Shown: positions 2,792 through 57,975 of the stretch, piece after piece | Layout of the letters: every line of letters begins with the position of its first letter | Numbering within the stretch: the first letter of the stretch is position 1 | NCBI GenBank assembly: GCA_021786945.1 | Contig: JAJYMK010000003.1 | Span: 393,471 to 457,470, forward strand | Reading direction: 5' to 3' | Length of the DNA: 64,000 bases | Source of the DNA: a bacterium | Lineage (GTDB): Bacteria; Patescibacteriota; Minisyncoccia; UBA6257; 02-FULL-45-10c | Notes under the pieces: generated by a model | The model's database searches: none | Told to the model about the DNA's origin: nothing | The model's input: the letters and a program-made list of their open reading frames with translations, nothing else | Program-made: the position numbers and the translations under genes

Positions 2792-2794
2792 ATT

Positions 2795-2820
2795 AAAACC
2801 CCCGCATTTACGGGGGTTTT
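2795..2820 (+). terminator. Rho-independent terminator (AAAACCCCCG-loop-CGGGGGTTTT)
   Basis: GC stem plus T-run directly after htrA-like stop; also overlaps the stop of the convergent small ORF. Confidence 0.7.
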
Positions 2821-2822
2821 AA

Positions 2823-2970
2823 TTTATTTGAACGTCTCTACCTTAAAGTACTTTATTATATTTTCAGGTACCGGAATGGTTAATTTATTAAGGCTATCAA
2901 TATGAAGAACGATGTAAATCGCCACTAATATAGCGCCAACCATCAATACCAAACCAATTACTTTTTCCAT
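2823..2970 (-). CDS. small hydrophobic membrane peptide (about 49 aa, MEKVIGLVLMVGAILVAIYIVLHIDSLNKLTIPVPENIIKYFKVETFK), paralog of the 4852-4971 peptide
   Basis: ATG at 2970 (minus), single predicted TM helix, ends ...FK-stop with TTCAAATAAA; below the 60-aa ORF-track cutoff, translated by hand. Confidence 0.35.
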
Positions 2971-3029
2971 TACTTTATTATATTAAATCAATTCATAAAA
3001 TGCCATATTTAAACCATATTTTAGGCCTC

Positions 3030-3058
3030 TTGACGATTTTTTAATTTTATGGTAATAT
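3030..3058 (+). promoter_or_regulatory. sigma70-like promoter: TTGACG, 17-nt spacer, TGgTAATAT extended -10
   Basis: TTGACG at 3030-3035, 17-nt spacer, TAATAT at 3053-3058 preceded by TGG; lies about 80 nt upstream of the 3138 start. Confidence 0.5.
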
Positions 3059-3137
3059 ATTATATATAACATTATGGCTGGGAGACGAGCTATATATAAG
3101 ACACTCCCCGCTTCTTAATTAATACAATACAAAAACT

Positions 3138-4811: not shown

Positions 4812-4823
4812 TCAAATAAATAA

Positions 4824-4853
4824 AAATACCGCCAATCAATAGGCGGTATTTTT
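4824..4853 (+). terminator. Rho-independent terminator (ATACCGCC-loop-GGCGGTATTTTT)
   Basis: hairpin plus T-run after the 3138-4811 stop; overlaps the stop of the convergent small peptide gene. Confidence 0.7.
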
Positions 4854-4971
4854 ATTTGAATAAAGCCAGTAAAGTTTCACGCCATGCTGCCAATTCCGGC
4901 CCGTTAAATAAGACGTAAATAGTTATTCCACAAAATACCATTATTAATAAACCCAGTACGCGTTTCCACAT
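4852..4971 (-). CDS. small hydrophobic membrane peptide (39 aa, MWKRVLGLLIMVFCGITIYVLFNGPELAAWRETLLALFK), immediately downstream of leuS
   Basis: ATG at 4971 (minus); TM helix; N-terminus, ...IY(I/V)(V/L)... core and C-terminal FK-stop resemble the 2823-2970 peptide; hand-translated. Confidence 0.35.
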   Translation of the reverse strand: MWKRVLGLLIMVFCGITIYVLFNGPELAAWRETLLALFK

Positions 4972-5009
4972 ACTTTAAGTTTACGCTTTAATTTAAAATA
5001 GTAAAACTA

Positions 5010-7436: not shown

Positions 7437-7510
7437 AGTTAAATATTAATATTAAAGCCAATTACATAATATTTTAGACCCAAAAACGTTTGGTAGCAAT
7501 AGAATAAGTC

Positions 7511-8341
7511 TTAATGAATTTTAAATACATCAGAAGAGTTTTTATATAAGTTAGCAGCAACATCCTCAAATATTAATCCCTTTATTTCCGCCAGTCTCTT
7601 AACTGTCTCAATCATATAAACCGGTTCGTTTCTTTGACCCCTGTGGCTTTGCGGTGCTACGTACGGACAATCGGTCTCTATAAAAATTCTTTCCACGGGC
7701 AAATATTTTATTATTTCTTCATAATTTTTAGCAAAAGTAATAACTCCTCCAAAGGTAAAATAAAATCCTAAATCAGCTAATTTTTTAGCCATATCCAGTG
7801 AACCGGCATAAAAATGCATTATTTTTGTTAAATCTTTAAATTTTGGATCATTTAATACATTCAAGGCATATTCATAGGCATTATCGCTCCCCTTGCTTGG
7901 GCGGCAATGCATCATTAATGGCTTGTTTAGTTCTCTAGCTAAATTTGCCTGTTCGGCAAAAACCCTACCTTGAATTTCCGCAGCAGAAGCATCGTAAAAC
8001 AAATCGAATCCACATTCACTTATAGCCACAACTTTTTCATCTTGAGCCAATGCTTTTAAAACTTTAATATCAAAAACTTCCGGTTCAGCGCCGAACTGTT
8101 CATTTTTATCATGATGCCACTCTTTTAATAAATGATTGGGATGAAAACCAACCGTAGCCCAGACATTGTCCGGAAACTCTTTCGCTACTTCTATAGCCCT
8201 TTTCGAAGTTTCGGCCTGAGTTCCCACGGCAATCATTTTTACCCTCTCTGATTGTGCTCTTTTTATGACCTCGGCCCTATCCGCATCAAAAGCTGGAAAC
8301 TGAATATGACCATGAGCATCCAAAAAATTAAGATTTGACAT
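7511..8341 (-). CDS. tatD: TatD-family metal-dependent hydrolase/DNase
   Basis: N-terminal LDAHGHIQFPAF (TatD HxH motif); TIM-barrel hydrolase pattern; 276 aa. Confidence 0.85.
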   Translation of the reverse strand: MSNLNFLDAHGHIQFPAFDADRAEVIKRAQSERVKMIAVGTQAETSKRAIEVAKEFPDNVWATVGFHPNHLLKEWHHDKNEQFGAEPEVFDIKVLKALAQDEKVVAISECGFDLFYDASAAEIQGRVFAEQANLARELNKPLMMHCRPSKGSDNAYEYALNVLNDPKFKDLTKIMHFYAGSLDMAKKLADLGFYFTFGGVITFAKNYEEIIKYLPVERIFIETDCPYVAPQSHRGQRNEPVYMIETVKRLAEIKGLIFEDVAANLYKNSSDVFKIH

Positions 8342-8394
8342 AATGTTTAATTCCTATTAATATACTATATACTAAATATTTGTTCGTTAACAAA

Positions 8395-8640
8395 TTGGCG
8401 CAAAGATGAAGTGATTACAGAGCCACTTCATATCAGCGCAGATGGCCGGATAAAAATCCTGAGAAAGTTGCGAGTCCTCGCCCATGAGGCCTCCTTCTCG
8501 CAAATCTCAATTCGGGAATTGACCCGAATGACCATCTCGATTTGCCCCAAGGCGGTGACTCCAATAAAGGGGTCACCGCCTCCAAATTTTATTGGCAATA
8601 AACCAATAAAAAAACTCCGATACAACTCGGAGTTTTTTAT
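8395..8640. ncRNA. unassigned GC-rich structured intergenic region between tatD start and metG stop; candidate small RNA
   Basis: local GC clearly above flanking DNA; several hairpins (GGCGGTGAC-loop-GTCACCGCC 9 bp; TCGGG-loop-CCGA; GCGAG-TCC-TCGC); ends in terminator CTCCGA-loop-TCGGAGTTTTTT; the two >60-aa ORFs here look non-coding. Confidence 0.3.
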
Positions 8641-10106
8641 TGTTTTTCTATTCTCGGAAAAAGATTTTGAATCTTGGTAACAGAAAAACCCGGCTCATTT
8701 TCTTTTAAAGAATCCAAAATCATTTGCGATGTTTGTGGTAAAAATGAAGACAGTAATAAGCCCAACTCTTTTAAGATAAACACCAAATCAAACAAGATTG
8801 ATTTTTTAGTTTCAGCAGTCAAAGATTTTTCCCATGGTTTTTTTTCATTCACATAACGATCTCCGTATTGAATCAAACTCCAAATATCCGTTAAAGATTC
8901 ACTGAATTTAAAATTTTCGGTTTTCTGTTTTACCGATTTCTTTATTTCTTTTATTTTTTCCCCAACATCGGAGGAAACACTCCCTTCTATTTTTTCTTCC
9001 TTTGAAGCCAAGGTAGATACTCTAGCGGCAAAATTACCCAGCCCATTTGCTAAATCACCATTATATCTTTCCTCAAATTTTTCATAAGAAAAATCTCCAT
9101 CTTCCGAAGACGGTATTTCTCTCAAAAGATAGTATCTCACGGGCTCGGTGCCGTATTTTTTTACCAATTCATAAGGATCGACAACGTTTCCCAAAGACTT
9201 CGACATCTTTTCGCCGTTTGCAGTAATAAATCCATGAATAAATACTTTTTTAGGAAGCGGCAATTTACAGGATAAAAGCATAGCAGGCCAAAGAGCCACG
9301 TGAAAACGAGAAATATCCTTTCCTATCATATGGACATCGGCAGGATGTTTTTTCCATTTATTTATCCCTCCATACCCACTTATATAATTAGTTAAAGCAT
9401 CGGCCCAAACATACATAACTTGAGTATCGTCATTCAAAACAGGCACTCCCCACTGCAAAGATCTTTTTGATCTTGAAAAACTTACATCTTCAAGTCCGCC
9501 TCTAATTAAAGATAATATTTCATTCTTTCTTGTTTCGGGAATAATCTTTAATTTATCTTTTTCTATCAAGTATTCCAATTCTTTTGTGTATTTAGAAAGT
9601 CTGAAAAACCAATTCTCCTCCTCTATGAATTCGAGTTGTTTTTTATGAATAACACATTTTCCATCAACTATATCTTTTCCAGTCTTAAAAGCCTCACAGC
9701 CAACACAATAGTAGCCGTTGTATTTTTTCTTATATAAATCCCCCGCCTTCAAAATTCTATCCCAGATTTCCCAAACAACAGGCCAATGATTTTTTTGATC
9801 CGTGGTTCTGACAAAATTATCCCAAGACAAATTTAAAACTTCTTTCAAGCCCCTGAATTTTAAAGATAAGCCGTCAACAAAATCTTGAGGATTTTTTCCG
9901 CTTTCTTCGGCGGCCTTTTGAATTTTGGATCCATGTTCGTCTGTGCCAGTCTGAAAAAAAACATCAAATTTTTCTTTACGGTAATGCCTAGCTAAAACAT
10001 CAGACTGCAAAGATTCTAAAGCAAAACCAATATGTGGATCGGAGTTAACATATGCTATAGAAGTCGTAACATAAAACTTCTTTTTTTGAAAAAAAAGATT
10101 AAGCAT
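8637..10106 (-). CDS. metG: methionyl-tRNA synthetase, short form lacking the C-terminal tRNA-binding domain
   Basis: DPHIGF(A) HIGH-like motif, KMSKS, zinc-knuckle CVGCE...CVIH; 489 aa. Confidence 0.9.
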   Translation of the reverse strand: MLNLFFQKKKFYVTTSIAYVNSDPHIGFALESLQSDVLARHYRKEKFDVFFQTGTDEHGSKIQKAAEESGKNPQDFVDGLSLKFRGLKEVLNLSWDNFVRTTDQKNHWPVVWEIWDRILKAGDLYKKKYNGYYCVGCEAFKTGKDIVDGKCVIHKKQLEFIEEENWFFRLSKYTKELEYLIEKDKLKIIPETRKNEILSLIRGGLEDVSFSRSKRSLQWGVPVLNDDTQVMYVWADALTNYISGYGGINKWKKHPADVHMIGKDISRFHVALWPAMLLSCKLPLPKKVFIHGFITANGEKMSKSLGNVVDPYELVKKYGTEPVRYYLLREIPSSEDGDFSYEKFEERYNGDLANGLGNFAARVSTLASKEEKIEGSVSSDVGEKIKEIKKSVKQKTENFKFSESLTDIWSLIQYGDRYVNEKKPWEKSLTAETKKSILFDLVFILKELGLLLSSFLPQTSQMILDSLKENEPGFSVTKIQNLFPRIEKQ

Positions 10107-11148: not shown

Positions 11149-11221
11149 TTTTTTACTCTACTATTTAGAACGTTTCAAATAGTAAAATAGTTTCGCAAAA
11201 AATCCGATCTATATTAGATTA

Positions 11222-12487
11222 CTATAAACTAAACCCCCTTTCAAATTGAGTCTTATTCTCAAAAGGACCGATGAGAGCCAAATTCAATCCAGAATTTTTA
11301 AAAATATCGTTTGCCACCTTTTTTATATCTTTTGCACTTACCGATTTAATTTTTTTAATTAACTGTTCTGGAGTCAGAATTTTTTCTTTAAAAATTTCCT
11401 GATCTCCGTAAAATTCCGCTACAGCATCGGATGTTTCTAGGCCAATCATCAATCTTCCTATAATATGGTTTTTAGATTTATCCAATTCGGCTTTGGATAT
11501 TTCCGTTTTTTTAATTTTATTTATTTCACCGAGAATAGCTTTTATGACTATCTCAACTTTTGTATTATCAACCCCAGCGGAAATTGCCAAAAGACCATGA
11601 TCAGTATATGCGGAGTTTCCGCAATTTACATAATATGCCGCACCTAGCTCTTCCCTGACTTTTTGAAAAAGCCTAGAACTCATTCCCCCGCCCAAAATAT
11701 CGCAAAGAACCCCCAAAATATATCTGCGTTTATCGAACGTATCAAAAGACCTGAATCCTAAAACTAAATGTGTCTGATCGGATTTCTTTGTTTCCAAAGA
11801 AACCATCGGTTTACTTTGAACTTCAGTAACTTTATTCTTACCCGATTTTAAAGACTTCGGAATAACTCCAAATACTTTTTCTATTTTTTTGAGCATTTGC
11901 TTTTCATTGAAATCACCGGCAACAACTATAGTAGTAGCCCCAGGAACATAATGATTTTTTCTGTAATTTATTAATCTTTCTCGGTTTATAGCCAAAACCC
12001 CCTCCTTCTTTCCAGCTATCGGCCAACCAGCCGGCTGATCGCCATAAACTAATTCCGTAAGATTTTCGTGTACCTTGCGCATGGGCAAATCTTCATACAT
12101 ATTAATCTCTTCAATAATCACGCCCTTCTCTTTTTCTATTTCTTTTTCTTCAAAAAGCGGATTGATATACATATCAGAAATAATATCTAAAGCATTATCT
12201 ATTTTGTCTGCACCAACTTTAGCAAAATATCCAGTAGCTTCGTTGCCCGTAAAAGCATTATAAACCGCCCCCAGGGATTCCATTTCAGAAGAAATAGCCA
12301 AGGCACTCGGACGTTTTTTTGTACCCTTAAAACACATGTGTTCCAAAAAATGAGAAATGCCATTTATCTCCTTGTTTTCATATTTAGAACCGGCTTCAAC
12401 TAAAACCAAAAATGTAGCAGCCAGACTTTTTGGCATAGAAATCAAAATAACCCTCAAACCATTTTTCAAAATGTGTTTTTTATACAT
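11222..12487 (-). CDS. M16-family zinc peptidase (insulinase/pitrilysin-like)
   Basis: inverted zinc-binding motif HFLEH near the N-terminus, 421 aa. Confidence 0.8.
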   Translation of the reverse strand: MYKKHILKNGLRVILISMPKSLAATFLVLVEAGSKYENKEINGISHFLEHMCFKGTKKRPSALAISSEMESLGAVYNAFTGNEATGYFAKVGADKIDNALDIISDMYINPLFEEKEIEKEKGVIIEEINMYEDLPMRKVHENLTELVYGDQPAGWPIAGKKEGVLAINRERLINYRKNHYVPGATTIVVAGDFNEKQMLKKIEKVFGVIPKSLKSGKNKVTEVQSKPMVSLETKKSDQTHLVLGFRSFDTFDKRRYILGVLCDILGGGMSSRLFQKVREELGAAYYVNCGNSAYTDHGLLAISAGVDNTKVEIVIKAILGEINKIKKTEISKAELDKSKNHIIGRLMIGLETSDAVAEFYGDQEIFKEKILTPEQLIKKIKSVSAKDIKKVANDIFKNSGLNLALIGPFENKTQFERGFSL

Positions 12488-12495
12488 AAATAAAT

Positions 12496-13806
12496 TTATT
12501 TAATTTTTTCAGATAAGTAATTTTTAAGTTCGGAAATTTTTATTCTTTCTTGCTTAGTAGTGTCCCTACTCCTAACTGTTACAGCACCATCCTCCAAAGA
12601 ATCAAAATCAACAGTGATACAAAACGGAGTTCCAATTTCGTCTTGGGAATAATAACGTTTTCCAACATTTCCTCTGTCGTCCCATGTAAGCATAAAATCT
12701 TTTCTCAAAGAATCATATATTTCTTTGGCTTTAGAAACCAATTCGGGTTTATTCTTCAAAAGAGGAAAAACAGCGGCTTTATAAGGAGCTAATTTATAAG
12801 GCAATTTTAAAACTAACCTTTCCGGATTGGAGTCGTCAAAAGAACTGGATAAAACAGCCAAAACCGTTCTATCCACCCCCCAAGTAGGCTCGATAACATG
12901 AGGGATAATTTTTTCGTTTGTTTCCGGATCGGCATAACTCAAATCTTCCTTGCTGGCAACAGAATGATTTTTAAGATCAAAGTCTGTCCTATAAGCAAGT
13001 CCATATAATTCTTTTTTGCCAAAAGGAAATTCATATTCAAAATCAATAGTTCTTTTTGAATAATGCGCTCTCTCGCCGTCTGGAACTTCGAATTCATGAA
13101 CTTTTTCCATTTCGATGCCAATTTCCTTCATCCATCCAATCATTTCTTTTCTCCACATTTCAAAAATAGATTGCCAATCTTCATCTTTTTTAGGCGGTTT
13201 GATAAAATACTCTATTTCCATCTGCTCGAACTCTCTTGTCCTGAAAATAAAGTTACCCGGCGTTATTTCATTCCTAAAAGCCTTTCCTATTTGGGCAATA
13301 CCGAAAGGCAATTTTTTACGCGTAGTCTGCAAAACATTCTTAAAATCAACAAACATCGCCTGAGCGGTTTCGGGCCTAAAATAAACGATATTGGCCGCTT
13401 CCTCAGCGGGACCAAGAAACGTCTTAAGCATAAGATTAAACTGCCTAGACTCCGTAAAACTATCTTTGGTCCCGCAATTCGGACATGGATCTTTTACATT
13501 AATCAGATCGGCACGGAATCTTTCATGGCATTTCTTGCAGTCAACTAATGGATCGCTGAAATTTTTCAAATGACCGCTAGCTTCCCAAACTTTCGGATTC
13601 ATAATCAAAGCCGCATCTATTCCTACCACATCATCACGGGATTGAACAAAACGCCTCCACCAAAGCTGCTTAATATTATTTTTTAATTCAACGCCAATAG
13701 GGCCATAATCCCAAGAATTAGCCAAGCCTCCATAAATTTCACTGCCGGGAAATACAAATCCACGTCTCTTGCACAGCGAAATTATTTTATCCATTTTTGA
13801 TTCCAT
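12496..13806 (-). CDS. glyS: glycyl-tRNA synthetase, dimeric alpha2 (archaeal/eukaryal-like) type
   Basis: class II aaRS motifs; N-terminus LCKRRGFVFPGSEIYGG...WDYGPIGVELKNNIK typical of GlyRS alpha2. Confidence 0.9.
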   Translation of the reverse strand: MESKMDKIISLCKRRGFVFPGSEIYGGLANSWDYGPIGVELKNNIKQLWWRRFVQSRDDVVGIDAALIMNPKVWEASGHLKNFSDPLVDCKKCHERFRADLINVKDPCPNCGTKDSFTESRQFNLMLKTFLGPAEEAANIVYFRPETAQAMFVDFKNVLQTTRKKLPFGIAQIGKAFRNEITPGNFIFRTREFEQMEIEYFIKPPKKDEDWQSIFEMWRKEMIGWMKEIGIEMEKVHEFEVPDGERAHYSKRTIDFEYEFPFGKKELYGLAYRTDFDLKNHSVASKEDLSYADPETNEKIIPHVIEPTWGVDRTVLAVLSSSFDDSNPERLVLKLPYKLAPYKAAVFPLLKNKPELVSKAKEIYDSLRKDFMLTWDDRGNVGKRYYSQDEIGTPFCITVDFDSLEDGAVTVRSRDTTKQERIKISELKNYLSEKIK

Positions 13807-15829: not shown

Positions 15830-16310
15830 GGCAATATTTACAATAAAATGCCAGATCTTTTACGGAAAAAAAATCCGGCGAACCTTTAAGACAATTATTA
15901 CATTTAGCATGCATAGGGTCAAAACCCAGTATCTTCAAAGCTTGTATAAAAACCCCCTCTTCTACTTGTTTATCCTCCATACTCTTTAAAAATTCCCACA
16001 AGTCCGGATCTGGCTGATTTTCGGGAGCAATTTCTTTTATAAGATATAAGGTTTTAAATGCGGTTTTTCCAGGAATTATTTTCTTAGAAGACAGAACATC
16101 TATAAGTTGCGGCGAATTTTTATCTACTATCCTTACGGTTACATAATTAAGTGGTTCGGAATGGGCGGCTAATTTGGAAATAATTTTTCTTCCACTTGTT
16201 ATTTTTGCCACTACTTTTCCAAAATCTTTGGTAAACAAAAAAACTCTCGAGTCTTGCTCGGCCAAATCTATTTTATCCAGAACTACCGCTTCGGTAACAT
16301 ATTCCAGCAT
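15822..16310 (-). CDS. RecO-like recombination mediator, minimal form (OB fold plus C4 zinc finger), tentative
   Basis: N-terminus MLEYVTEAVVL..DSRV..FTKDFGKV typical of RecO; C-terminal CNNC...CKYC; only 162 aa. Confidence 0.45.
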   Translation of the reverse strand: MLEYVTEAVVLDKIDLAEQDSRVFLFTKDFGKVVAKITSGRKIISKLAAHSEPLNYVTVRIVDKNSPQLIDVLSSKKIIPGKTAFKTLYLIKEIAPENQPDPDLWEFLKSMEDKQVEEGVFIQALKILGFDPMHAKCNNCLKGSPDFFSVKDLAFYCKYCHE

Positions 16311-16314
16311 TATT

Positions 16315-16959
16315 TTATTTTACCAAATTTAAAGCCAGGGGTCTTCCGCCTAATTTATGCGTAATCAGCTTTATAATATAATCCAATTTCTTCGGGTCCT
16401 CTAAATAATTCAAATCATCAAGCGGAATAGTCAAAACCTGAGATTTCATAAAATTGCCGGCCCACTCATCGTATAAACGGTTAAGATCCAATAGATATTT
16501 TTCGTCTATTTTCTGCTCGAATTCCCTGCCACGCATCTTTATCCTCTTTTTTATAGTCGGAACAGAATTCTTCAGATAAATAATCAGATCCGGGGAAGGC
16601 AATAATTCCAAAATAGACTGATAAAATCCCTGATACACATCCCAGTCGCGCTTTTCTATAAATCCCCTTTCAAACAAATTTTTCGCAAATATTTCCGCAT
16701 CTTCATAAATCGTCCTGTCCTGAATGAAAATTCCTTTTTCTTTGGAAAGAGAAACTTGATCTTTAAGGCGCTGGCCCAGAAAAAACATCTGAGAATGAAA
16801 TGCCCAGCGTTTCATGTCTTTATAAAAATCAGCCAAATATGGATTTTCCGAAGCGGGCTCAAAAACAGGCGTTGCCTGAAATTTTTCCGCTAAAACTTTG
16901 GTAAGGGTGGATTTACCTGCGCTAATATTGCCCGCTATAGCTATAAAGAGATTATCCAT
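16315..16959 (-). CDS. deoxynucleoside kinase (dNK/dCK/dGK family)
   Basis: P-loop AGNISAGKST, dNK-family spacing; start reassigned to the internal ATG at 16959 because the longer ORF-track N-terminus (to 17046) overlaps tRNA-Leu. Confidence 0.7.
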   Translation of the reverse strand: MDNLFIAIAGNISAGKSTLTKVLAEKFQATPVFEPASENPYLADFYKDMKRWAFHSQMFFLGQRLKDQVSLSKEKGIFIQDRTIYEDAEIFAKNLFERGFIEKRDWDVYQGFYQSILELLPSPDLIIYLKNSVPTIKKRIKMRGREFEQKIDEKYLLDLNRLYDEWAGNFMKSQVLTIPLDDLNYLEDPKKLDYIIKLITHKLGGRPLALNLVK

Positions 16960-44596: not shown

Positions 44597-44717
44597 TTAT
44601 AACCGGCGTAACCTACTTTCTCGCCCAACAAATTAGGACAATATCATCGGTCTTAAACATTTTCACTTCTCTGTTCGGAATGGGAAGAGGTGGGTCATGT
44701 TTAAGTAAAACACCAGC
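44597..44717 (-). rRNA. rrf: 5S ribosomal RNA
   Basis: reverse complement contains CCCATTCCGAACAGAGAAGTGAAA...GACCGATGATA, matching the 5S loop B/C consensus; terminal helix GCTGGTG/CGCCGGT. Confidence 0.7.
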
Positions 44718-44809
44718 TAAAAGAAAAATTCGTGGGGTTTCTTAATCAATCTCAAAGATAAATTCTAACTTAAGAGGTCAGAATCTCTTATACAAAACTT
44801 CAAAAAATT

Positions 44810-47800
44810 GAAATCTTGTATAAAAGAAAATCGGTCTATTAGTACTACTCGACTAAACACATTACTGTGCTTACATCTGTAGCCTATCAACGCAGTAGTC
44901 TTCTGCGGACCTAACACATAGTCTCAGGGTGGGCTTCGTGCTTAGATGCTTTCAGCGCTTATCCCTTCCGAGCAATAGCTACCCAGCATTTCAGTTGGTA
45001 CCAAAGCTGGCAGACCAGAGGCTCGTTCAATCCGGTCCTCTCGTACTAGGATCGACTCCCTTCAAGTGTTTATAAGTGTTCTTCACACTAACGCCTACAG
45101 CAGGTAGAGACCAACCTGTCTCACGACGGTTTGAACCCAGCTCACGTATCCTTTTAAATGGCGAACAGCCATACGCTTGGGACCTTCTCCAGCCCCGCGC
45201 TAGGATGAGCCGACATCGAGGTGCCGAGCTTCGTCGTCGATAGGGACTCTCGGACGAAACTAGCCTGTTATCCCCAGGGTAACTTTTAGCCGTTGTCTCC
45301 GACCTTTCTATAAAGAATCGTCGGGTCGCTAAGTTCCGCTTTCGCGTCTGCGCGACTTGTAGGTCTTGCAGTCAAGCTGGCTTGTGCCTTTACGCGTCCA
45401 GCCCGATTTCCATCCGGGCTAAGCCAACCTTGATAAACTCCTCCATTACTCTTTAGGAGGAAAATGCCCCATTTAAACTGTCCAGCAGGCACTGTCTCAG
45501 TCAGGCTTACAGGAAAACCCTGATTCCTAACCGGTTAGGCTTTAAAGAATTAAAAATGGGTGTTTCATTGGCGGATCCATTTACCCCGAAAGATAAACTT
45601 CAAATCCTACCCACTACGCTACGTATTAAACCTTTAAAGTCAATGCCAACACACAGTAAAGCTCCTGGGGTCTTTTCGTCTTGCTGCAGGTATCCCGCGT
45701 CTTCACGGGAATCGCATTTTCATCGAGCTCTTCGTTGAGACAGTTCTCCGATCATTACACCTTTCATGCGCTTCAGAACTTACCTGAAAAGGAATTGCGC
45801 TACCTTTGGACGGTTATAGTTACCGCCGACATTGACGAGGGCTTCGGGCGATAAGCACTATACATTGCTGCATAGCACCTTCACCGTTAACCTTCTCGCA
45901 TCGGTCAGGTGTCACCCCCTATACATCCACTTACGTGTTAGCAGGGAGTTGTGTTTTTGGTAAACAGTTGCCAGAGATACTTTAGCTGCGGCCCTTCTTG
46001 CGAAGGGCAGTCCTTATTGCGAACTTACGGACGCTTTTTTGCCGAGTTCCTTAACGAAGACTCACTCGTTCCCCTGAGGCTTCTCGCCTCACCCACCAGT
46101 GTCGGTTTACGGTACGATGTCTAATATATTAACCTTAGAAGTTTTTCTTGGAAGGCTCTTCATCTGTATTAGCTAAGTAAAAACTTAGCCTTACGTCAAT
46201 TCGCGAAACTTGCCATTAAAGGCAGATATCCGGATTTGCCTGGATACCGAATCTGAAAATCAGCGACGCCAAACCATTAAGGCGCACAGACTTATTTCCT
46301 CCGTCCCTCCCTCGAATATATCAGACGGGCCGGAATATTAACCGGCTTACCCTTCAGCTGCGGCTTTCGCCATGACCTTAGGATCGCCTAACCCGTGGTT
46401 GATTGCCATTGCCACGGAAACCTAGGATTTGCGGGGATTATGTTTCTCACATAATTTGGGATTACTTATACCAACATTCTCTCTTCCTAACGCTCCATCG
46501 CCCCTCGCGGGTACGACTTCACAGCAGATAGAAATGCTCTCCTACCAGATACTATCTTTACGATAGTAAATTCGCGCCTTCGGTATCTTGCTTAGCCCCG
46601 ATACATTTTTGGCGCAACCAACCATTGAATAGTGAGTTGTTACACACTCTTTAAAGGATGGCTACCTCTAAGCCAACCTCCTATCTGTCTATGGTTGATT
46701 ACTACCTTTTACACTTAGCAAGAATTTAGGGACCTTAGACGGCGATCTGGGCTCTTCCCCTCGCGACCGTGAAGCTTTGCCCCCACGGTCTAACTAGTAA
46801 TCACGATTCCTGGTATTCGGAGTTTGATTGGTCATCCGGTCTTTCGACCTGTGAGGACCATCCAGTGCTCTACCCCCAGAAAATTTAGGATTACCGCCAG
46901 TCCGAAAACTGTTTCGGAGAGAACCAGCTATCACTAAGCTCGATTAGCTTTTCACTTCTTACCCCAACTCATCCAAGGGTGTTGCACAACCCACTAGTTC
47001 GGACCTCCCCCTAATGTTTAGTTAGAGTTCATCCTGGTCAGGGCAAGCTCGCTTAGCTTCGGGTCTTACATAAACGACTGATTTCGCGCTATTAACACTC
47101 GGTTTCCCTACGGCTTCCCCGTCTCTACCGGGTTAGCCTTGCCGTTTACATAAAGTCGTTGGCTCATTCTTCAATAGGCACCACGTTAGCCGCAATGCAT
47201 CCGAAGATGCACTTTTAGCCTTCGAGTCCTTGTAAGCATATGGTTTCAGGTACTATTTCATCGCCCTCGCCGGGCTGCTTTTCACCTTTCCCTCACGGTA
47301 CTGGTTCACTATCGGTCATCAAAAGTATTTAGCCTCACGAGATTAGTACTCGTTGCTTCCTGCAAGGTTATGTGGCCTCGCAGTACTCAAGATAGATACT
47401 CATAAATGAGTAACTCCGGTCTTTCACCGGTAGAAACGGAAAAGATTGAATTTTTTTATTTACGAGGCTATCACTCCCTATGGCTCCTCTTTCCAGAGGA
47501 TTCAATTAAAATTCAATTTTGTAACTCTTCTCTTCAAACACAACGAATAATGAACCAGAAGAGTTCACTATTCGATGGTTTGAAAAAGTTTCTATCTTAC
47601 AACCCTCAAGACTTGATAACTGAAGGGCCTGAATTGTTCATCGAGTTTAATCCCGAATTCCATCTCCAGATTTCAGAAACCTTATCGAAAGTTTGGGCTA
47701 CTCCCTTTTCGCTCGCCGCTACTTGGGGAATCACTGTTGTTTTTTATTCTTCCGCTTACTGAGAAGTTTCACTTCAGCGGATACGCTCTTCATTTCTTAC

Positions 47801-47960
47801 GAAACAAAGCAATTGCGGTTTACGCAATTAGGTTACCCCATTAGGAAATCTCCGGATCAAAGGTTGCTAAGCACCTCCCCGAAGCTTATCGCAGCTACAC
47901 CACGTCCTTCATCGCCTTTTGATGCCAAGGCATCCACCATACGCCCTTAATTTAACGTTT
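44810..47960 (-). rRNA. rrl: 23S ribosomal RNA (about 3.15 kb, ends approximate), not linked to a 16S gene
   Basis: reverse complement aligns by eye to 23S landmarks from 5' GGATGCCTTGGC and AGTAGCGGCGAGCGAA through the GTP-ase centre, peptidyl-transferase region (GGATAACAGGCT, CTCGATGTCGGCTC) and sarcin-ricin loop (CCTAGTACGAGAGGACC). Confidence 0.9.
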
Positions 47961-48283
47961 CATTACGAAACGCTGACCTCTTAAGTCAGAATTTATCTCA
48001 TAAATTATACGAAAATATGAGATCGATTTTGCTCCCATGCAAAATCATTTTGCGAACAACACATTGCGAAAAGACCATAATGTCTAAAATGTATTGTTCT
48101 GTTAAAATTTTCTCTCTAAATTTGTGGCTGATTCATTTCTGAATCAACTTTATTAAGTTGCTGTCTGCTGTTCATCCAGGTCTGTCAGTCGGTCCCGGAT
48201 TTTTCAAAAATATTTTTTTTGGAAGATCCGGGACAAACCAACTATTTTTTTTTAAAAAACTTGATTGAATTTTTTTATAAAAA

Positions 48284-48301
48284 AACCGCGTTTGCGCGGT
48301 T
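48284..48301 (-). terminator. Rho-independent terminator (AACCGCG-TTTG-CGCGGTT) between the 48473 gene and the 23S promoter region
   Basis: GC hairpin with a T-run on the minus strand. Confidence 0.5.
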
Positions 48302-48436
48302 ACTTAATACAACAAAAACTTCTCGTTTAGCCGCGCGATGTTTTGATATGTAAATAAATATTCATCAAGTAAATGTAATAATAATCAATAACCAAAAAAA
48401 TGTCAACACCTTTAAAACTAGTCGGCCAAAATAAAA

Positions 48437-48460
48437 AGCAGCGGGTTGAAACCGCTGCTT
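48437..48460 (-). terminator. bidirectional Rho-independent terminator (AAGCAGCGG-loop-CCGCTGCTT)
   Basis: 9-bp stem flanked by A and T runs, directly after the 48473 stop. Confidence 0.6.
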
Positions 48461-48472
48461 ATTTTTATGAAA

Positions 48473-49045
48473 CTACCACCCATTTCCCACCTCGCCCTTG
48501 CGCATGGCTATGAGCAGATCCTTGGCCAGAAAAGAAATCTGGGTAAGGTATTTTTTGTTTTCCGGTTTCCTGAAAAAGCCGCAAGCCGTTTCAAGATCCT
48601 GATGAAAACATTTCTTCGCATCTTCGGATGCGTAGTTGGAGGTACAGAAAATAAGGACATCTTCCCTGCCATGAACAGAGCGCACAAGCCCCGTTTCTTT
48701 CAGGTAGTTGAAGAATTTTTTTGCCGTCGAGCCGCAATATTCTTTGCCGCCGACTTCTATGCTTTCCCATGCCCCGCGGAAAATATCGCTAGGATAGAAA
48801 AGCTTATTTTTTTCGTAAAGCACTTCCATGCAGTTCATTACATCTTTGGCATTAACCAAAGCTTTTACTCCGATTTTTTCCAGAAGAAAAAAGGAGCAAA
48901 TAACGAATTCTGAAAAACCAACTTTGAGCGCAGCGTTGGGCTGATTTTTTGACAGACTTATTTCCGCCAGCAACATCGCTTCGGCTTTTTGCCAGTCCTC
49001 CTGTGTCGGTATTTTATCCAGCGCTACGTGACTAAGTATTTTCAT
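48473..49045 (-). CDS. hypothetical protein, first gene of the higher-GC island
   Basis: 190-aa ORF with coding-like composition; no motif recognised; GC visibly higher than the genome background. Confidence 0.5.
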   Translation of the reverse strand: MKILSHVALDKIPTQEDWQKAEAMLLAEISLSKNQPNAALKVGFSEFVICSFFLLEKIGVKALVNAKDVMNCMEVLYEKNKLFYPSDIFRGAWESIEVGGKEYCGSTAKKFFNYLKETGLVRSVHGREDVLIFCTSNYASEDAKKCFHQDLETACGFFRKPENKKYLTQISFLAKDLLIAMRKGEVGNGW

Positions 49046-49151
49046 CTATATCCTCCATATTTTTGACTTCAAATAACTGCAGAGAATTTTATTAGAAAAA
49101 TTGAATAGTGTCAATTAAAAAACTCCCCCCGTTGGGAGAGTTTTTTAATAT

Positions 49152-49832
49152 TTATTTTTCTATTCCGTCTTTCATCTTTTGCAAAAGATGTGCGGCAAAA
49201 TCTTTTCCGCCAAGACCGAAAGCCAAACCGCCAGCCAAAGCAAACATAGCGATAAGGCCGGTAATTACCGTGTTAATAATAGCCACGGCAACTCCGAGCT
49301 GATTCAGGGCTATTAAAAGACCGAAAGTCACAATAACCCACCAGGCAGCGGAAGAAAGAAATCCCTCTCCCCCGACTTTAGCGCTCATTACGGAAGCCTT
49401 AACTATTTTCTGCATTAAATTTGCAACAATAAGAGCCACTACCATAACTAAAATAGCAACTACAAGATTCGGAAGATAAGTCAGGATATCTTTTACGAAA
49501 TTAGACAATACGTAAAACTTCAAAATATCCGCAGCCGCAGAAAAGAAAACTAAAACCAAAAACCAATAAACTATTTCTCCGAACAAATATCCGGAATTAA
49601 GTTCCAAGTTGGCCCGCTTGGTATATTCTTCCAAACCGACTTTTTTTAAAAAATTATCCAGCTTAATAGCTATAATTAATTTTTCAACCAAGGAAGCCAA
49701 ACCAGAGGCTACGGCTAAACCAATAATAAAAACCAACAACGCGCCTATCAAAGACGGTAAAAACGATAATGTTTGAACCCAAAGATTTTGTAATGAGCTC
49801 ATTAAAACGTCCGTCCAAGTTTGAATTAACAT
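49152..49832 (-). CDS. polytopic membrane protein with repeated TM-helix modules resembling the MscS N-terminal TM_helix repeat; in the higher-GC island
   Basis: 226 aa, several TM helices with two similar repeated segments (LLVFIIGLAVASGLASLVEKLI / AILVMVVALIVANLMQKIVKA); terminator after the stop. Confidence 0.45.
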   Translation of the reverse strand: MLIQTWTDVLMSSLQNLWVQTLSFLPSLIGALLVFIIGLAVASGLASLVEKLIIAIKLDNFLKKVGLEEYTKRANLELNSGYLFGEIVYWFLVLVFFSAAADILKFYVLSNFVKDILTYLPNLVVAILVMVVALIVANLMQKIVKASVMSAKVGGEGFLSSAAWWVIVTFGLLIALNQLGVAVAIINTVITGLIAMFALAGGLAFGLGGKDFAAHLLQKMKDGIEK

Positions 49833-49919
49833 TTTTTTAAAATTAATAATTAGTTTCGACTACAATTTAATTATAGCAAAATAAAAAGACGGGATTTTAT
49901 TCCCGTCTTTATTTTCTAA

Positions 49920-50381
49920 CTAATCGTTTTTCTTGGTACCGGGAAGTACGAAGATTGCCGACTGAGGTTTACCGGTCTCGATGATCTTTTTAAGATCAAT
50001 CACCGGCCTAACCTTGCCTAGAAATTCTTCTTTATAAATATCCGAGTGAAGAATTATTTTTTCGCCCTCGGCTCTTTTTACGCCCAGGCCATTTAAAGCC
50101 TTACCATAACCGCCAAACCAGACGAAATCGTCCAGTGATAAAGTTCGGAATCCACGCCTCGAATATTCTCTTTCCCACCTGGCCCACCCCCAGAACATAT
50201 TATCAAACCCAAGCGGCTCTCCGAAATAAAGATAACTCACACCATCGCCAAACCTGGCGCCGGCCTCGATATAATTCATTTCCGCTTCTTTATCGGAAAG
50301 ACTTTTTAACCAAAGCATATAAAGCCAGTCAAAAGCTTCACCGAGCCTTCTTTTCAGTTTTTTCATCATGCTTCCTCCCAA
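49920..50381 (-). CDS. hypothetical Trp/Gly-rich protein in the higher-GC island
   Basis: 153-aa ORF, no TM helix and no known motif (FDNMFWGWARWEREY...FVWFGGYGKALNGLG); terminator after the stop. Confidence 0.45.
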   Translation of the reverse strand: MGGSMMKKLKRRLGEAFDWLYMLWLKSLSDKEAEMNYIEAGARFGDGVSYLYFGEPLGFDNMFWGWARWEREYSRRGFRTLSLDDFVWFGGYGKALNGLGVKRAEGEKIILHSDIYKEEFLGKVRPVIDLKKIIETGKPQSAIFVLPGTKKND

Positions 50382-50442
50382 ATAATTTTTAAATAACTAA
50401 ATAAAAGATACTCCTTAGATTGAGTAAAAGTCAAAATAAAAG

Positions 50443-50513
50443 TGGACCTAGGCGGAATCGAACCGCCGTCTCAGCAATGCGAATGCCGTGTTCTACCACT
50501 AGACTATAGGCCC
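50443..50513 (-). tRNA. tRNA-Ala(CGC)
   Basis: hand-folded: acceptor GGGCCTA/TAGGTCC with one GU pair, anticodon loop TTCGCAT, T-arm GGCGG-TTCGATT-CCGCC; D-stem has one mismatch. Confidence 0.65.
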
Positions 50514-50588
50514 ATCTGCTTCATATATAATAAAAAAAATAAACGGAAAACAAAAGCCCTCTTTTCAAGAGGGCTTTTGAATTGCGAT

Positions 50589-51617
50589 TTATTTCCAAAT
50601 TCCGCTTTCGTAAAAAAATAAAATAAAATATCCAACTAATAAAATAAGCCACCCAGCCGCCTGAATCAAGTCAAGTAATTGAGCACTGGACATACTAAAG
50701 TTTTCCGCGGCAATAGTGTAAACATCTTCCAAAGAATCCAGCTTTTCTTTTACACTTTTGTGCCAAGCATCAAATTTAAATTTCTTCGAAAGCAAGTCAT
50801 AAACCCTGGCAGAATACCAGTCACCTATTAGTTTGATATCTTTATCTAAAGCTTCGAATTGGGAAATTGACTGAGTTCTTATTCTAATAACCTCTCTAAA
50901 TGCATTAGCCATATCTTTATTCCTAAAAATTCTTGTCCAAATCCCCTTCTTTTCATCAGTTTGAATAAGCTTATAAACTTTTTTAAGTCTTTCATCCAAG
51001 TCTTCGTCTAAGGCGCGGTATCTAAGCAACTGAAAATTAGCCAGCTGCAAAAGATCAATAGAATCATCGAAATCACCCTTAGGGTCAAATAAAAATGCCC
51101 CATCCCAATCTAAAATAATCAAGTCATCCTTAGCATATTTAAACTGGAAAGAAAGTGTATATTCAATTTCTTTTTCATCGAGTTCTAATTTTTCGGATTT
51201 CAAAAGAGATGCTATTTTATTTCCGTGTTTTTTAATAAACAGCTCCGGGTCACCGGAATAATCGGAAATTTGATGAACAGTGAACTCCTCTCCCGTTTCA
51301 ATTCTAGCACCGCTTCTTTTACCGTAATCAATGCAAGCGTCCAAAAGCTTATCTTTTAATTCAAGAATTTCTTCGGAAAATATATCCGGCACCTCAATGG
51401 TTCCTTCGATCATTAAAGCATCGGAATAATAACTTTTAAGGATCAGTTCAACTTCATAATTCTTAACCTTAACTTTTTCTTTTCCAATAACTATCTGAGG
51501 CGGCATTGATTTCGCCAAATAATGCGGACTGCTTTTAAGTGGTACTGGCGCCGGCATCTCCTTACCCTTTTTAGCTTTATTTATTTCTGCCACTACAAAC
51601 GATGTAATTTTATGCAT
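50589..51617 (-). CDS. hypothetical protein with a C-terminal TM anchor
   Basis: 342 aa, charged soluble domain, single C-terminal TM helix (WLILLVGYFILFFY); no motif recognised. Confidence 0.45.
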   Translation of the reverse strand: MHKITSFVVAEINKAKKGKEMPAPVPLKSSPHYLAKSMPPQIVIGKEKVKVKNYEVELILKSYYSDALMIEGTIEVPDIFSEEILELKDKLLDACIDYGKRSGARIETGEEFTVHQISDYSGDPELFIKKHGNKIASLLKSEKLELDEKEIEYTLSFQFKYAKDDLIILDWDGAFLFDPKGDFDDSIDLLQLANFQLLRYRALDEDLDERLKKVYKLIQTDEKKGIWTRIFRNKDMANAFREVIRIRTQSISQFEALDKDIKLIGDWYSARVYDLLSKKFKFDAWHKSVKEKLDSLEDVYTIAAENFSMSSAQLLDLIQAAGWLILLVGYFILFFYESGIWK

Positions 51618-56511: not shown

Positions 56512-57975
56512 TTAAACAAAATATTTTTTCTTTATATCCTCTTCTATTTTGGTTTGGGCTTCATTAGCCGATTTTTTAGCAAATTTAGCCATCTCTCTTA
56601 ATTGTTCTTCTTTTAAAACCAACATCTGCTTCGCCCTATCCAATAAAATTTCTTTTTTATTTATCGCCGGATCATCCAAAACCTCTTCCAATAAAATTGC
56701 CAATATATATCCAATTTTAGGACTCGGAACTAGTCCGGTTTCTTTCATCAGATCATTTCCATCCAGCTGAAGCATTTTGGCGCTTATCGGATCATTGCTT
56801 ACTTTCTCAATCCTGAATTTAAGATGCCTCAGCCTGTACGGCTGGGCCTTGGGCACGCCCGAACCAATCCTGTCGGCTTCACGCAAAGAAAACAGGTCGT
56901 CCATATTTTCCGATCCAACGCGGCGCAACAATCTCCTGGCTCCCGCGTCGGTTACCGTTTCCGGATCATAAACAAACATATGTTCCCGTATAAGCCCAAC
57001 AACTTTTTCGGTAATTTCTTTTGAGAATTTCAATCTGTCCAAAATTTGAGCGGCCATCCTGGCTCCAATTACCTGATGTCCATAAAAAGTAGCGTCGGGA
57101 CCATTTCCTCTTTTACTTTTTGGTTTACCCACGTCATGAAGCAGGGCCGCCAGCCTGATTTCCAAAGAAAAATTCTTTTTCGCCGTATATTCCAAGGACT
57201 TCAGATTATGCTCAAATACAGTAAACACATGATGCTGATTCTGTGAAACGCCAACACCCTCCATAAGCTCCGGAACGACATATTTTAAAAGCCCCAGCTC
57301 CCTTAATTTATCTATTCCTCCGGCCGCATCATCGGCCATTAAAGTTTTTGAAAATTCATCGCGTATTCTTTCCCTGGAAATAAATTCCAAAAGTCCAGCA
57401 TGCTTTTTTATGGCATTTTCGGTTTCGCCTTCAATCTCAAAACCAAGCTGCGCCATAAAACGCACAGCCCTCATCATCCTCAGAGCATCTTCCTCAAATC
57501 TTTGTTCTGGATTTCCCACAGCTTTTATTATTTTTCTGCCCAAATCCTGGATTCCGCCAAAAGGATCTATAAGCTCAAATGGTTTTTCCAAATTTATCCT
57601 CAATGCCATTGCATTTACCGTGAAATCCCTGCGAGATAGGTCTTCCTCGATTGTATTTGCAAATCTCACTTCATCGGGATGCCTCTTGTCGGTATATTTA
57701 CCCTCCAATCTATAGGTTGTGATTTCTATAATTTTCAATTTCGGATCGGAAGACTCCGTCTTTACCCCAACGGTCCCAAAATTATTTTCATACACACTGT
57801 CGGGAAAAATTTTTTGTATATCTGCGGGTGTGGCATTAGTAGTTATATCCCAATCTTTAGGTTCTTTGCCCCGTAAAATATCACGCACACAACCCCCAAC
57901 AAGGCACGCCTCAAAACCGGCTTTCAGTAAAGCTTCCGTAACTTGTTTTATTTCGGTTTTTTCGATAGTCTGCAT
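56512..57975 (-). CDS. cca: CCA-adding tRNA nucleotidyltransferase with C-terminal HD domain
   Basis: GGCVRDILRG...DWDI nucleotidyltransferase head, HD motif (LLHDVGK), 487 aa; consistent with most tRNA genes here lacking an encoded CCA. Confidence 0.85.
   Translation of the reverse strand: MQTIEKTEIKQVTEALLKAGFEACLVGGCVRDILRGKEPKDWDITTNATPADIQKIFPDSVYENNFGTVGVKTESSDPKLKIIEITTYRLEGKYTDKRHPDEVRFANTIEEDLSRRDFTVNAMALRINLEKPFELIDPFGGIQDLGRKIIKAVGNPEQRFEEDALRMMRAVRFMAQLGFEIEGETENAIKKHAGLLEFISRERIRDEFSKTLMADDAAGGIDKLRELGLLKYVVPELMEGVGVSQNQHHVFTVFEHNLKSLEYTAKKNFSLEIRLAALLHDVGKPKSKRGNGPDATFYGHQVIGARMAAQILDRLKFSKEITEKVVGLIREHMFVYDPETVTDAGARRLLRRVGSENMDDLFSLREADRIGSGVPKAQPYRLRHLKFRIEKVSNDPISAKMLQLDGNDLMKETGLVPSPKIGYILAILLEEVLDDPAINKKEILLDRAKQMLVLKEEQLREMAKFAKKSANEAQTKIEEDIKKKYFV

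Follow-up and report, generated by a model that had tools for sequence, protein, structure and literature searches.

Unlinked rRNA genes are known in Patescibacteria (CPR), and rRNA insertions have also been mentioned for CPR members (Brewer et al., bioRxiv 10.1101/705046). Protein families common to Patescibacteria and DPANN archaea have been described as well, and gene exchange has been reported (PMC12455944 and references therein). The locus considered here lies in a 64-kb stretch of patescibacterial DNA (hereafter the window), and resembles the unlinked arrangement in that a 23S rRNA gene (44820–47960, minus strand) is followed by a 5S gene (44601–44717), while a Rfam scan of the 64-kb window finds no 16S gene. 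The 23S gene of the window is, in addition, ~216 nt longer than the Rfam model, which is consistent with rRNA insertions.

Our interest is in the interval upstream of this 23S gene, at 48300–50440, which we compared with ~15 related Patescibacteria loci, mostly on short metagenome fragments, the species relationships being drawn from one anchor protein (contigs used for comparison carry the prefix L). An earlier note on this DNA had taken the interval for an acquired island on the basis of a hand-estimated GC contrast and a nearby tRNA gene, and the value of the present analysis is mainly corrective, in that measurement and synteny point instead to an inherited neighborhood. The outcomes for the three genes of the interval are modest, and current understanding is unchanged by these sequence results alone.

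Layout, Transcription Signals, and Base Composition

The three minus-strand open reading frames (ORFs) called by the earlier note (48473–49045, 49152–49832, and 49920–50381) are borne out as the only plausible genes among frames of at least 50 aa in 48300–50440, and we refer to them as g1, g2, and g3, respectively. The first, at 48473–49045, encodes a soluble α/β protein of 190 aa, and the second, at 49152–49832, a 226-aa membrane protein with ~5 transmembrane (TM) segments. The likely start of g3 is an ATG at 50369 or 50366, preceded by GGAGG, and the resulting coding sequence (49920–50369) specifies a soluble, mainly helical protein of 149 aa. The flanks are also as claimed, with the 23S gene as the downstream boundary and tRNA-Ala(CGC) as the upstream boundary (50442–50513, minus strand; ARAGORN, Rfam 61.4 bits). 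The 3′ end of this tRNA gene reads …GGTCCAC followed directly by TTTT, and CCA is not encoded.

All transcription signals described in the following lie on the minus strand. A promoter-like site for g3, TTGACT-18-TATCTT (50405–50434), begins 8 nt past the tRNA end, and the gene is followed by an intrinsic terminator with a 10-bp stem and then a T-run (49885–49910). The T-tail of this terminator overlaps a predicted extended −10 element for g2, TGCTATAAT (49870–49878), which comes from reading the sequence and, in a comparison with L001/L002 and L015, is kept as TGTTATAAT in L001 and L015; g2 in turn ends in a hairpin and T-run at 49125–49140. A promoter matching at 11/12 positions, TTGACA-17-TAAAAT (49086–49114), precedes g1, with a hairpin and T-run after it at 48436–48460. 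Beyond this point lies the 23S leader and promoter region (47961–48435), with a promoter TTGACA-17-TATTAT at 48406–48378, a terminator-like hairpin at 48301–48284, a long hairpin at 48234–48192, and nucleotide conservation of 71–75% in L016–L018. Terminator-like hairpins with a T-run are found at 18 sites in the region, against 3.1 expected, and a Rfam scan of 47900–50700 at a permissive threshold returned nothing beyond sub-threshold matches to terminator hairpins. The earlier claim of a separate terminator for each gene therefore stands, at 49910–49885, 49140–49125, and 48460–48436, and on these signals g1, g2, and g3 are predicted to be transcribed separately, as three single-gene units that have a promoter and a terminator each.

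The compositional argument fares less well. The three genes had been put at ~45% GC against ~33% for the rest of the window, and this holds in part for g1 and g3, which at 44.2% GC each are the two most GC-rich among the 51 ORF-genes (mean 37.2, sd 3.3), g3 having the highest value of the 51. However, the window itself is at 37.3% GC (36.9% without rRNA), g2 is average at 38.3% (rank 18 of 51), and the region as a whole is at 38.7%, such that the true contrast amounts to ~7 points in g1 and g3 and ~1 point in g2, rather than 12 points in all three. Among windows of the same length, the region stands at the 82nd percentile (z = +0.89) and so within normal variance, the outcome that the earlier note had itself named as contradicting its reading. 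By GC3, g1 and g3 rank 1st and 3rd of 51, and in their choice of synonymous codons the two genes depart only mildly from the norm (z = −1.9 and −1.1). The GC3 excess of g1 is also present in the sister species L001/2 and is missing in L014, L016, and L021, which rules out a GC excess as a trait of the whole g1 family. The small surplus in GC and GC3 that g1 and g3 show is probably a feature confined to this sub-lineage, and no mark of recent import.

Gene Content of the Interval across Related Loci

Across the related loci, a 342-aa gene, tRNA-Ala(CGC), variable cargo, and the 23S gene keep their order, and in L010, L011, L013, and L014 the conserved series extends over TruB, DUF378, DUF167, the 342-aa gene, and tRNA-Ala, and then 23S. 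Which genes lie between tRNA-Ala and 23S differs from one related genome to another. Nevertheless, g2 is found at the same site in L001–3, L011, L012, L013, L015, and L016/17, and its synteny reaches down to 57–66% anchor identity (L011, L012, and L013), while in L001, L016, L017, and L018 the 23S leader and 23S come straight after g1, whose identity is 82% in L001 and ~41% in L016–18. Against L016, identity is 85% for g2 but no more than 41% for g1. Homologs of g3 and g1 adjoin each other in L014, as do homologs of g3 and g2 in L015, and in L004 the g3 homolog is followed by a g1-type promoter and 5′ UTR homologous to those of the window (score 55 versus a shuffle maximum of 34); the promoter of g3 likewise has homologous counterparts ahead of the g3 homologs in L014, L015, and L004, and in a family tree the g3 of the window groups with known bacterial members. 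Both g1 and g3 are missing from L010 and from the outgroups L011–L013, which makes their distribution patchy, and transfer among related Patescibacteria may conceivably be their source. The orthologs are thus syntenic, although not universal in the lineage. All three genes are under purifying selection, with ω against L001 of 0.09 for g1 and 0.075 for g2, and ω for g3 of 0.09–0.14 among L014, L004, and L015, the comparison for the window's own g3 being saturated.

We consider it probable from these sequence comparisons that the region is a vertically inherited, lineage-specific neighborhood in a variable spacer that is a hotspot for insertions and deletions, and not a recent island. Under this model, the spacer between tRNA-Ala(CGC) and the unlinked 23S–5S unit of what would be a Harrisonbacteria-like member of the Patescibacteria (CPR) would have been filled by inherited genes. 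In the ancestor of the clade, 23S was probably preceded by g3, g2, and g1, and these often by a dCache histidine kinase; later losses would differ between lineages, taking g3 from L001–3, g2 from L014, and the whole trio from L010, with the full g3-g2-g1 set retained in the window. In partial support of the earlier note, interval content does differ among relatives and one polymorphism, that of g3, has its edge exactly at the tRNA 3′ end, but there is no att repeat, and the change-tolerant spacer seems to have gained and lost genes piece by piece.

This g3 polymorphism deserves separate consideration. A 543-bp segment (49899–50441, minus strand), comprising the g3 promoter, the coding sequence, and most of the terminator, is present here and not in the sister species L001/L002, whose anchor protein is 97% identical to that of the window. 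The breakpoints by blastn are 50442 and 49898, and a junction alignment places the left one exactly at the tRNA 3′ end. One could read this segment as a recent promoter-gene-terminator cassette from another Patescibacterium, brought by illegitimate or homologous recombination to the position immediately 3′ of tRNA-Ala, beside resident g2 and g1. That exactly 50441–49899 is lacking from both L001 and L002, with a breakpoint at the tRNA end, would fit such an event, as would the GC content of g3, the location of its homologs in L014, L004, and L015, none of which is beside the tRNA gene, and its identity of only 57–64% to the nearest relatives, with a position at the base of the bacterial clade in the family tree. 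We nevertheless regard recent insertion as unlikely. The gene is immediately upstream of g2 in L015 and of g1 in L014 and L004, such that its position is clade-wide, and its promoter is homologous in these loci. Moreover, the junction in L001 keeps an AAAATC…T-run like that in the 3′ half of the g3 terminator, which suggests a deletion scar, and dS between the window and L001 is ~1–1.5, leaving ample time for loss. The only candidate for a target-site duplication, the 10-nt TTTTATTTTG that flanks g3 on either side, is too short and too AT-rich to serve as an integration signature. We also considered whether an insertion could have destroyed the CCA of tRNA-Ala, and this is ruled out: an encoded CCA is lacking from 8 of the window's 9 tRNAs and from the corresponding tRNA of outgroup L011, such that its absence is normal here and no sign of disruption.

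The Three Protein Families and Their Possible Coupling

One product had been described as a membrane protein that is polytopic and internally repeated, and this is confirmed for g2, which matches Pfam PF05552 over two stretches (E = 7.7e-19) and whose N-terminal half scores 72 against its C-terminal half, compared to 37 ± 6.6 for shuffles (z ≈ 5). Residues 116–204 align to residues 24–116 of E. coli MscS (E ≈ 0.003), a stretch that covers TM1–TM3a with the Gly/Ala-rich pore helix. Compared with the MscS family (E. coli MscS; PF05552 and PF00924), g2 therefore shares two PF05552 units and the pore-lining TM3a, but stops ~22 residues past TM3a, at residue 226, without the β and α/β vestibule domains, and has an extra N-terminal duplicated TM pair. 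No Pfam model beyond PF05552 matches, the PF00924-type cytoplasmic vestibule is missing, and the scores against the NCBIfam MscS models are below cutoff (75 versus 100 bits, and 29 versus 321 bits). We know of no characterized member with such a TM-only architecture, and a literature search on PF05552 found no papers. Proteins with PF05552 are common in Patescibacteria genomes of this kind. Most likely, g2 would form oligomers in the membrane that act as a minimal pore or sensor responding to tension. It is the conserved core of this neighborhood, and such a duplicated MscS module, consisting of TM segments only, with a pore-lining TM3a and no cytoplasmic vestibule, and conserved in streamlined Patescibacteria, could represent a minimal tension sensor.

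This raises the question of whether the three genes act together as a functional module, perhaps joined by the dCache histidine kinase encoded upstream in some relatives, that is, as a membrane-tension or envelope-signal pathway in which g1 and g3 work with g2. We find this improbable. The neighbors do recur over substantial divergence, as g3-g2-g1 in the window, g2-g1 in L001 and L016/17, g3-g1 in L014 and L004, and g3-g2 in L015, with the histidine kinase directly upstream in L014, L016, and L017, and a g2-like gene lies 2.5 kb from g1 in L019, the most distant syntenic g1 homolog. However, every gene comes with a promoter and a terminator of its own, any single member can be missing (L001, L014, and L016), and unrelated genes surround the distant g3 homologs in archaea and bacteria alike. 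The most distant g1 homolog, in L021, likewise has no g2 or g3 on its short flanks (~1.5 kb upstream and 0.4 kb downstream). As PF05552 proteins are so common in these genomes, the proximity of the three genes may be inherited synteny, and the adjacency of g2 and g1 in close relatives could be simple synteny, without necessarily implying functional coupling.

The other two products had been described as soluble with no recognizable motif, and this agrees with our searches, in which g1 and g3 have no match in Pfam, NCBIfam, PADLOC, PHROGs, or PDB sequences. Sequence and profile searches against PDB, and Pfam and NCBIfam searches with each member of the two families, gave nothing credible; a POTRA_2 match in 3 of 36 family members (E = 6.5e-4) was treated as noise. 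The g1 family is tiny, clade-restricted, and fast-evolving; a search of 1.84 billion proteins turned up 7 representatives (E from 4e-124 to 7e-6), and in the inherited-neighborhood model g1 would be a cytoplasmic, quickly evolving protein kept immediately upstream of the 23S promoter. Its predicted structure is confident (pTM 0.86), and Foldseek against PDB gives a best E of 0.69 with TM < 0.3. The full-length alignment conserves P13, W18, Y84, F89, W93, and N163-K-K165-Y166, and as these residues are mostly aromatic or hydrophobic, together with the N-K-K-Y motif, they suggest a role in binding or scaffolding more than in catalysis.

In the case of g3, a first pass that returned 3 matches had made the gene look like a near-ORFan, because the word index limited that search, and a profile search overturned this impression with 228 clusters at E ≤ 0.01, at least 120 of them with E < 1e-30 among the matches listed. 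The family is unnamed, with proteins of ~135 aa, of which the window's is a long form, and has no Pfam or NCBIfam model and no annotation. It is recognized by FGDAVSY…GEC·GF…W··WE·EY··RGYRT·SLD…GGYGK, with invariant positions Y33, G37, G41, S45, G50, E66, Y69, G73, G87, and Y88; the window's protein matches both profile and motifs, and has Pro at the nearly invariant Cys52. The predicted model is only moderately confident (pLDDT 72), and Foldseek against PDB gives a best E of 0.84 with TM ≤ 0.32. Members occur on Patescibacteria contigs (the window, L014, L015, and L004) and on archaeal contigs (L023 and L024/25) at ~50% identity, the domain of life being labeled for a handful of the 228 clusters only. 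Since the family is also found in archaea, an old horizontal transfer somewhere in its history is plausible, and this widespread family, which ultra-small archaea have as well, stands alone in distant genomes.

It is tempting to go further, and to see in g1 a new fold family tied to the unlinked 23S (for example, to the 23S leader or to large-subunit biogenesis), and/or in g3 a lifestyle-linked, ultra-small-cell family of Patescibacteria and DPANN. The confident fold of g1 without PDB or viral neighbor, its fixed position upstream of 23S down to 41% identity, and the ~50% identity of unannotated g3 homologs across domains would all be in keeping with this, although we consider it quite doubtful. 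What can be said of g1 is that a tiny, fast-evolving family, with a confident predicted fold and no solved structural neighbor, appears locked beside an unlinked 23S gene.

Signs of Mobility and Comparison with Known Systems

The island proposed by the earlier note also finds little to rest on in the search for mobility genes and boundaries. None of the three ORFs of 48300–50440 is an integrase or recombinase by Pfam, NCBIfam, or PHROGs, where only PF05552 matched. A 23-nt segment from the tRNA-Ala 3′ end, whose direct repetition had been suggested as a boundary mark, occurs once in the 64 kb, even with 3 mismatches, and a repeat scan gave short AT-rich chance repeats and nothing else. An empty site, also suggested as a sign of acquisition, is not seen in any relative compared, where g2 is present in L001, L011, L012, L013, L015, and L016 and g1 in L001, L014, and L016–18; only g3 is missing, in L001/2. 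The suggestion of a small defense or membrane-stress module divides accordingly: PADLOC-DB has no family at E ≤ 1 for any of the three proteins and PHROGs gave no hit, by which a defense module is rejected, whereas a membrane-tension role for g2 is reasonable. A viral origin was likewise set aside, with no g3 relatives in viral contigs and no g1 neighbors among viral protein folds.

That all three genes arrived at tRNA-Ala as one acquired island, a small defense or membrane-stress module, is thus very improbable and already largely refuted by synteny, since g2 is syntenic down to 57–66% anchor identity and g1 keeps its place upstream of 23S down to 41%, and the adjoining tRNA, the variable interval, the GC and GC3 enrichment of g1 and g3, and two uncharacterized soluble products stand against the unremarkable composition of the region and of g2, separate predicted transcription units that occur in differing combinations per genome, and the lack of an integrase, a tRNA-end repeat, a PADLOC or PHROGs match, or a viral relative.

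The likeness to tRNA-linked integrative genomic islands is therefore one of position, variable content, and two mildly GC-rich genes, at a site immediately 3′ of a tRNA gene. Unlike such islands, the interval has no integrase, duplicated tRNA 3′ segment, or mobility genes, and two of its three genes are syntenic across species. With respect to the unlinked rRNA genes of CPR members (bioRxiv 10.1101/705046), that work gives no account of protein genes upstream of 23S, and the adjacency of g1 and 23S is specific to this clade. Finally, the g3 family differs from the families shared between Patescibacteria and DPANN (PMC12455944) in having neither name nor proposed function, but is like them in occurring on both bacterial and archaeal contigs, and with its 228 unannotated clusters, from CPR bacteria and archaea alike, it extends the list of proteins that ultra-small prokaryotes have in common.

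Layout and base composition of the region

The three minus-strand genes between tRNA-Ala(CGC) (50442–50513, −) and the 23S rRNA gene (44820–47960, −, followed by 5S) were found as ORFs where the earlier note had placed them, namely g1 (48473–49045, 190 aa), g2 (49152–49832, 226 aa) and g3 (49920–50381, with its start probably at the ATG at 50369 or 50366, after GGAGG), and the flanks and the one terminator per gene that it had described were likewise confirmed. Each gene ends in a hairpin with a T-run on the minus strand (g3, 49910–49885; g2, 49140–49125; g1, 48460–48436) and has its own promoter-like element (TTGACT-18-TATCTT for g3, an extended −10 TGCTATAAT read from the sequence for g2, and TTGACA-17-TAAAAT for g1), and thus the three are separate transcription units. 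In public gene calls g2 begins at an internal Met and is 216 aa long; the first residues of the longer form, MLIQTWTDVL, are kept in the outgroup locus L011 and in L012 and L013, which supports the 226-aa start as the probable one.

The proposed GC contrast of ~45% against ~33% proved overstated: the window has 37.3% GC (36.9% without rRNA) and the flagged 2141 bp 38.7%, which in comparison to same-length windows is unexceptional (z = +0.89, 82nd percentile). Among the 51 ORF-genes of the window (mean 37.2%, sd 3.3), g1 and g3 do reach 44.2% (GC ranks 2 and 1, GC3 ranks 1 and 3, codon-usage z −1.9 and −1.1, respectively), with g2 at 38.3% (ranks 18 and 13, z −0.6); the signal is real but modest in g1 and g3, and absent in g2. 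The high GC3 of g1 is also seen in the sister species L001/L002 (0.45 vs 0.31–0.33 in neighbouring genes) and was not found in the g1 homologs of L014, L016 and L021, and it is therefore a trait of the sub-lineage rather than a mark of recent arrival.

Comparative context between tRNA-Ala and 23S

The decisive evidence on the island question is the comparative context. Related Patescibacteria genomes, one of them named Candidatus Harrisonbacteria, were recovered using as an anchor the 342-aa gene upstream of tRNA-Ala (50589–51617, −), which has homologs in L001 and L009–L014 (protein identity 97% to L001 and 57–77% to other species). We note that this gene is well conserved and without assigned function; its product ends in a C-terminal TM segment and has no Pfam match above threshold, and the contig index lists PF27233 (MJ0711_N) for it.

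The order TruB, DUF378, DUF167, 342-aa gene, tRNA-Ala(CGC), then 23S is kept across relatives, while the content between tRNA-Ala and 23S differs. It comprises g3, g2 and g1 in the window; g2 and g1 in L001–L003; a 175-aa membrane protein (11251–11778) and g2 in L011; g2 and a 390-aa unknown protein (6413–7585) in L013; an 803-aa P-type ATPase (11182–13593), g2 and other genes in L012, where no 23S was found in the locus; and only small genes (8472–9050; DsrE-like, 108 aa, and SHOCT-like, 78 aa) in L010. With homologs marked by primes, L014 has an 8-kb block (2063–9837) ending in a dCache-HAMP histidine kinase, then g3' and g1' before the contig ends, L015 has g3' and g2' up to its contig end, L016/L017 have a histidine kinase, g2', g1' and 23S, and L018 has g1' and 23S. 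Genes turn over readily in this spacer, a hotspot in which g2 is a core resident down to 57% anchor identity and g1 stays a conserved neighbour upstream of 23S at identities as low as 41%; the evolution of g1 is much faster than that of g2 (41% and 85% identity to L016, respectively). g3 recurs directly upstream of g2 or g1, with a promoter homologous between loci, and in L004 a promoter and 5'UTR of the g1 type come after g3' (score 55 vs at most 34 for shuffles). Purifying selection acts on all three genes (ω 0.06–0.19).

Thus, of the suggestion of horizontally acquired cargo beside a tRNA gene, the tRNA-adjacent hotspot and the polymorphism of g3 stand, but the three genes together do not make up an acquired island, as g2 and g1 are syntenic in relatives; g3 alone is missing in L001/L002. 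A defence module is rejected along with the island, none of the three proteins having a PADLOC match. The region is best explained as a lineage-specific neighbourhood, passed on vertically, that lies upstream of an unlinked 23S–5S unit.

Presence and absence of g3

Homology between the window and L001/L002 stops at 50442, the 3' end of the tRNA, and resumes at 49898, the sister species lacking exactly 543 bp that hold the g3 promoter, CDS and most of its terminator. No att-like repeat of the tRNA-Ala 3' end, which would mark an integration boundary, was found in a direct-repeat check. The left edge of the gap is the spot where L001, like L002, encodes the CCA of tRNA-Ala and the window does not. 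The missing CCA was ruled out as a sign of tRNA disruption, because eight of the nine window tRNAs, including tRNA-Ala(CGC), and the outgroup L011 do not encode it either (the exception in the window is tRNA-Leu(CAA)). A 487-aa CCA-adding enzyme of the PolyA_pol/HD type has an intact ORF elsewhere in the window, at 56512–57975 (−).

The favoured reading is that the L001 lineage lost g3, since g3 stands upstream of g2 or g1 in L014, L015 and L004, window g3 groups with these bacterial members in the family tree, L001 still has a stretch similar to the g3 terminator's 3' half, and window–L001 dS is ~1–1.5. A separate insertion of g3 is possible but rather unlikely.

Gene products and the 23S–5S unit

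The description of g1 and g3 as soluble proteins without recognisable motif was right. Sequence and profile searches with g1 gave no match in Pfam, NCBIfam, PADLOC, PHROGs or the PDB, and among 1.84 billion representatives scanned exhaustively with HMMER the family has 7 members only. Its AlphaFold model (8-sequence alignment) is a confident alpha/beta structure (pLDDT 87.6, pTM 0.86), for which neither the PDB (best E = 0.69, TM < 0.3) nor a set of viral models gave a significant neighbour. Because the invariant residues are mainly aromatic or hydrophobic, plus N163-K-K165-Y166, binding or scaffolding is suggested more than catalysis, and we infer that g1 is a clade-specific non-enzymatic partner or scaffold.

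g3 looked ORFan-like in a first search (3 matches), a status overturned by a 5-sequence profile that recovered 228 clusters, of which 120 are listed, every one with E < 1e-30; the matches listed have no Pfam domain and no name beyond "hypothetical protein". The family conserves FGDAVSY·Y·GEC·GF, W··WE·EY··RGYRT·SLD and GGYGK, with a C-terminal LPSTK/E in long forms such as window g3, which has Pro in place of a nearly invariant Cys. For g3 the predicted structure is of moderate confidence (pLDDT 72) and mainly helical, and it has no PDB neighbour. Homologs with 50–52% identity to window g3 lie on two long archaeal contigs (L023, 6001–6408; L024/25, 6001–6399 in L024 and 1008–1406 in L025), where the surrounding genes are unrelated to g1 and g2 and include aEF-1β, a TFS-type RPB9/TFIIS zinc ribbon, ZPR1 and an HVO_2753-type zinc finger (all above Pfam cutoffs), as well as eIF-1A. 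The unannotated family is common to Bacteria and Archaea, domain of life being assigned for a few members only, and g3 is best viewed as a widespread protein without assigned function. That Patescibacteria and DPANN archaea share genes was reported in earlier work (PMC12455944). What value the region retains lies in the g1 and g3 families, both unannotated, and in g2, a form of MscS with the TM part only.

Between the g1 terminator and 23S lie, on the minus strand, a near-consensus promoter (TTGACA-17-TATTAT, 48406–48378), a terminator-like hairpin ~80 nt downstream (48301–48284) and a long 19-bp hairpin (48234–48192). This leader is 71–75% conserved at the nucleotide level in L016–L018, and the element (48192–48406), which has no Rfam match, could be the promoter of rrl, with an attenuator or a processing stem in its leader, or else a ~90-nt short RNA. 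The 3' part of the L011 23S is interrupted by ~256 nt (16266–16523) relative to the window 23S, splitting the blastn match, probably through a lineage-specific rRNA insertion.

The 23S and 5S genes (44601–47960, −) have no 16S within the 64 kb, an unlinked arrangement typical of Patescibacteria (bioRxiv 10.1101/705046), and the 3141-nt 23S carries a net insertion of ~216 nt over the 2925-nt Rfam model; both the unlinked rRNA and an expanded 23S have been described for Patescibacteria/CPR. As the earlier note had recognised, g2 is a polytopic membrane protein with an internal repeat. It has a match (E = 7.7e-19) to PF05552, the TM helix conserved in mechanosensitive channels, falls below the NCBIfam MscS cutoffs, and is probably a minimal MscS-like membrane protein: like E. 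coli MscS it carries a TM1–TM3a-type segment (residues 116–204 align with MscS 24–116, TM1 to pore helix TM3a, E ≈ 0.003), whereas unlike MscS it ends 22 residues past this stretch, and therefore has no cytoplasmic vestibule, and its N-half duplicates its C-half (score 72 vs 37 ± 6.6 for shuffles).
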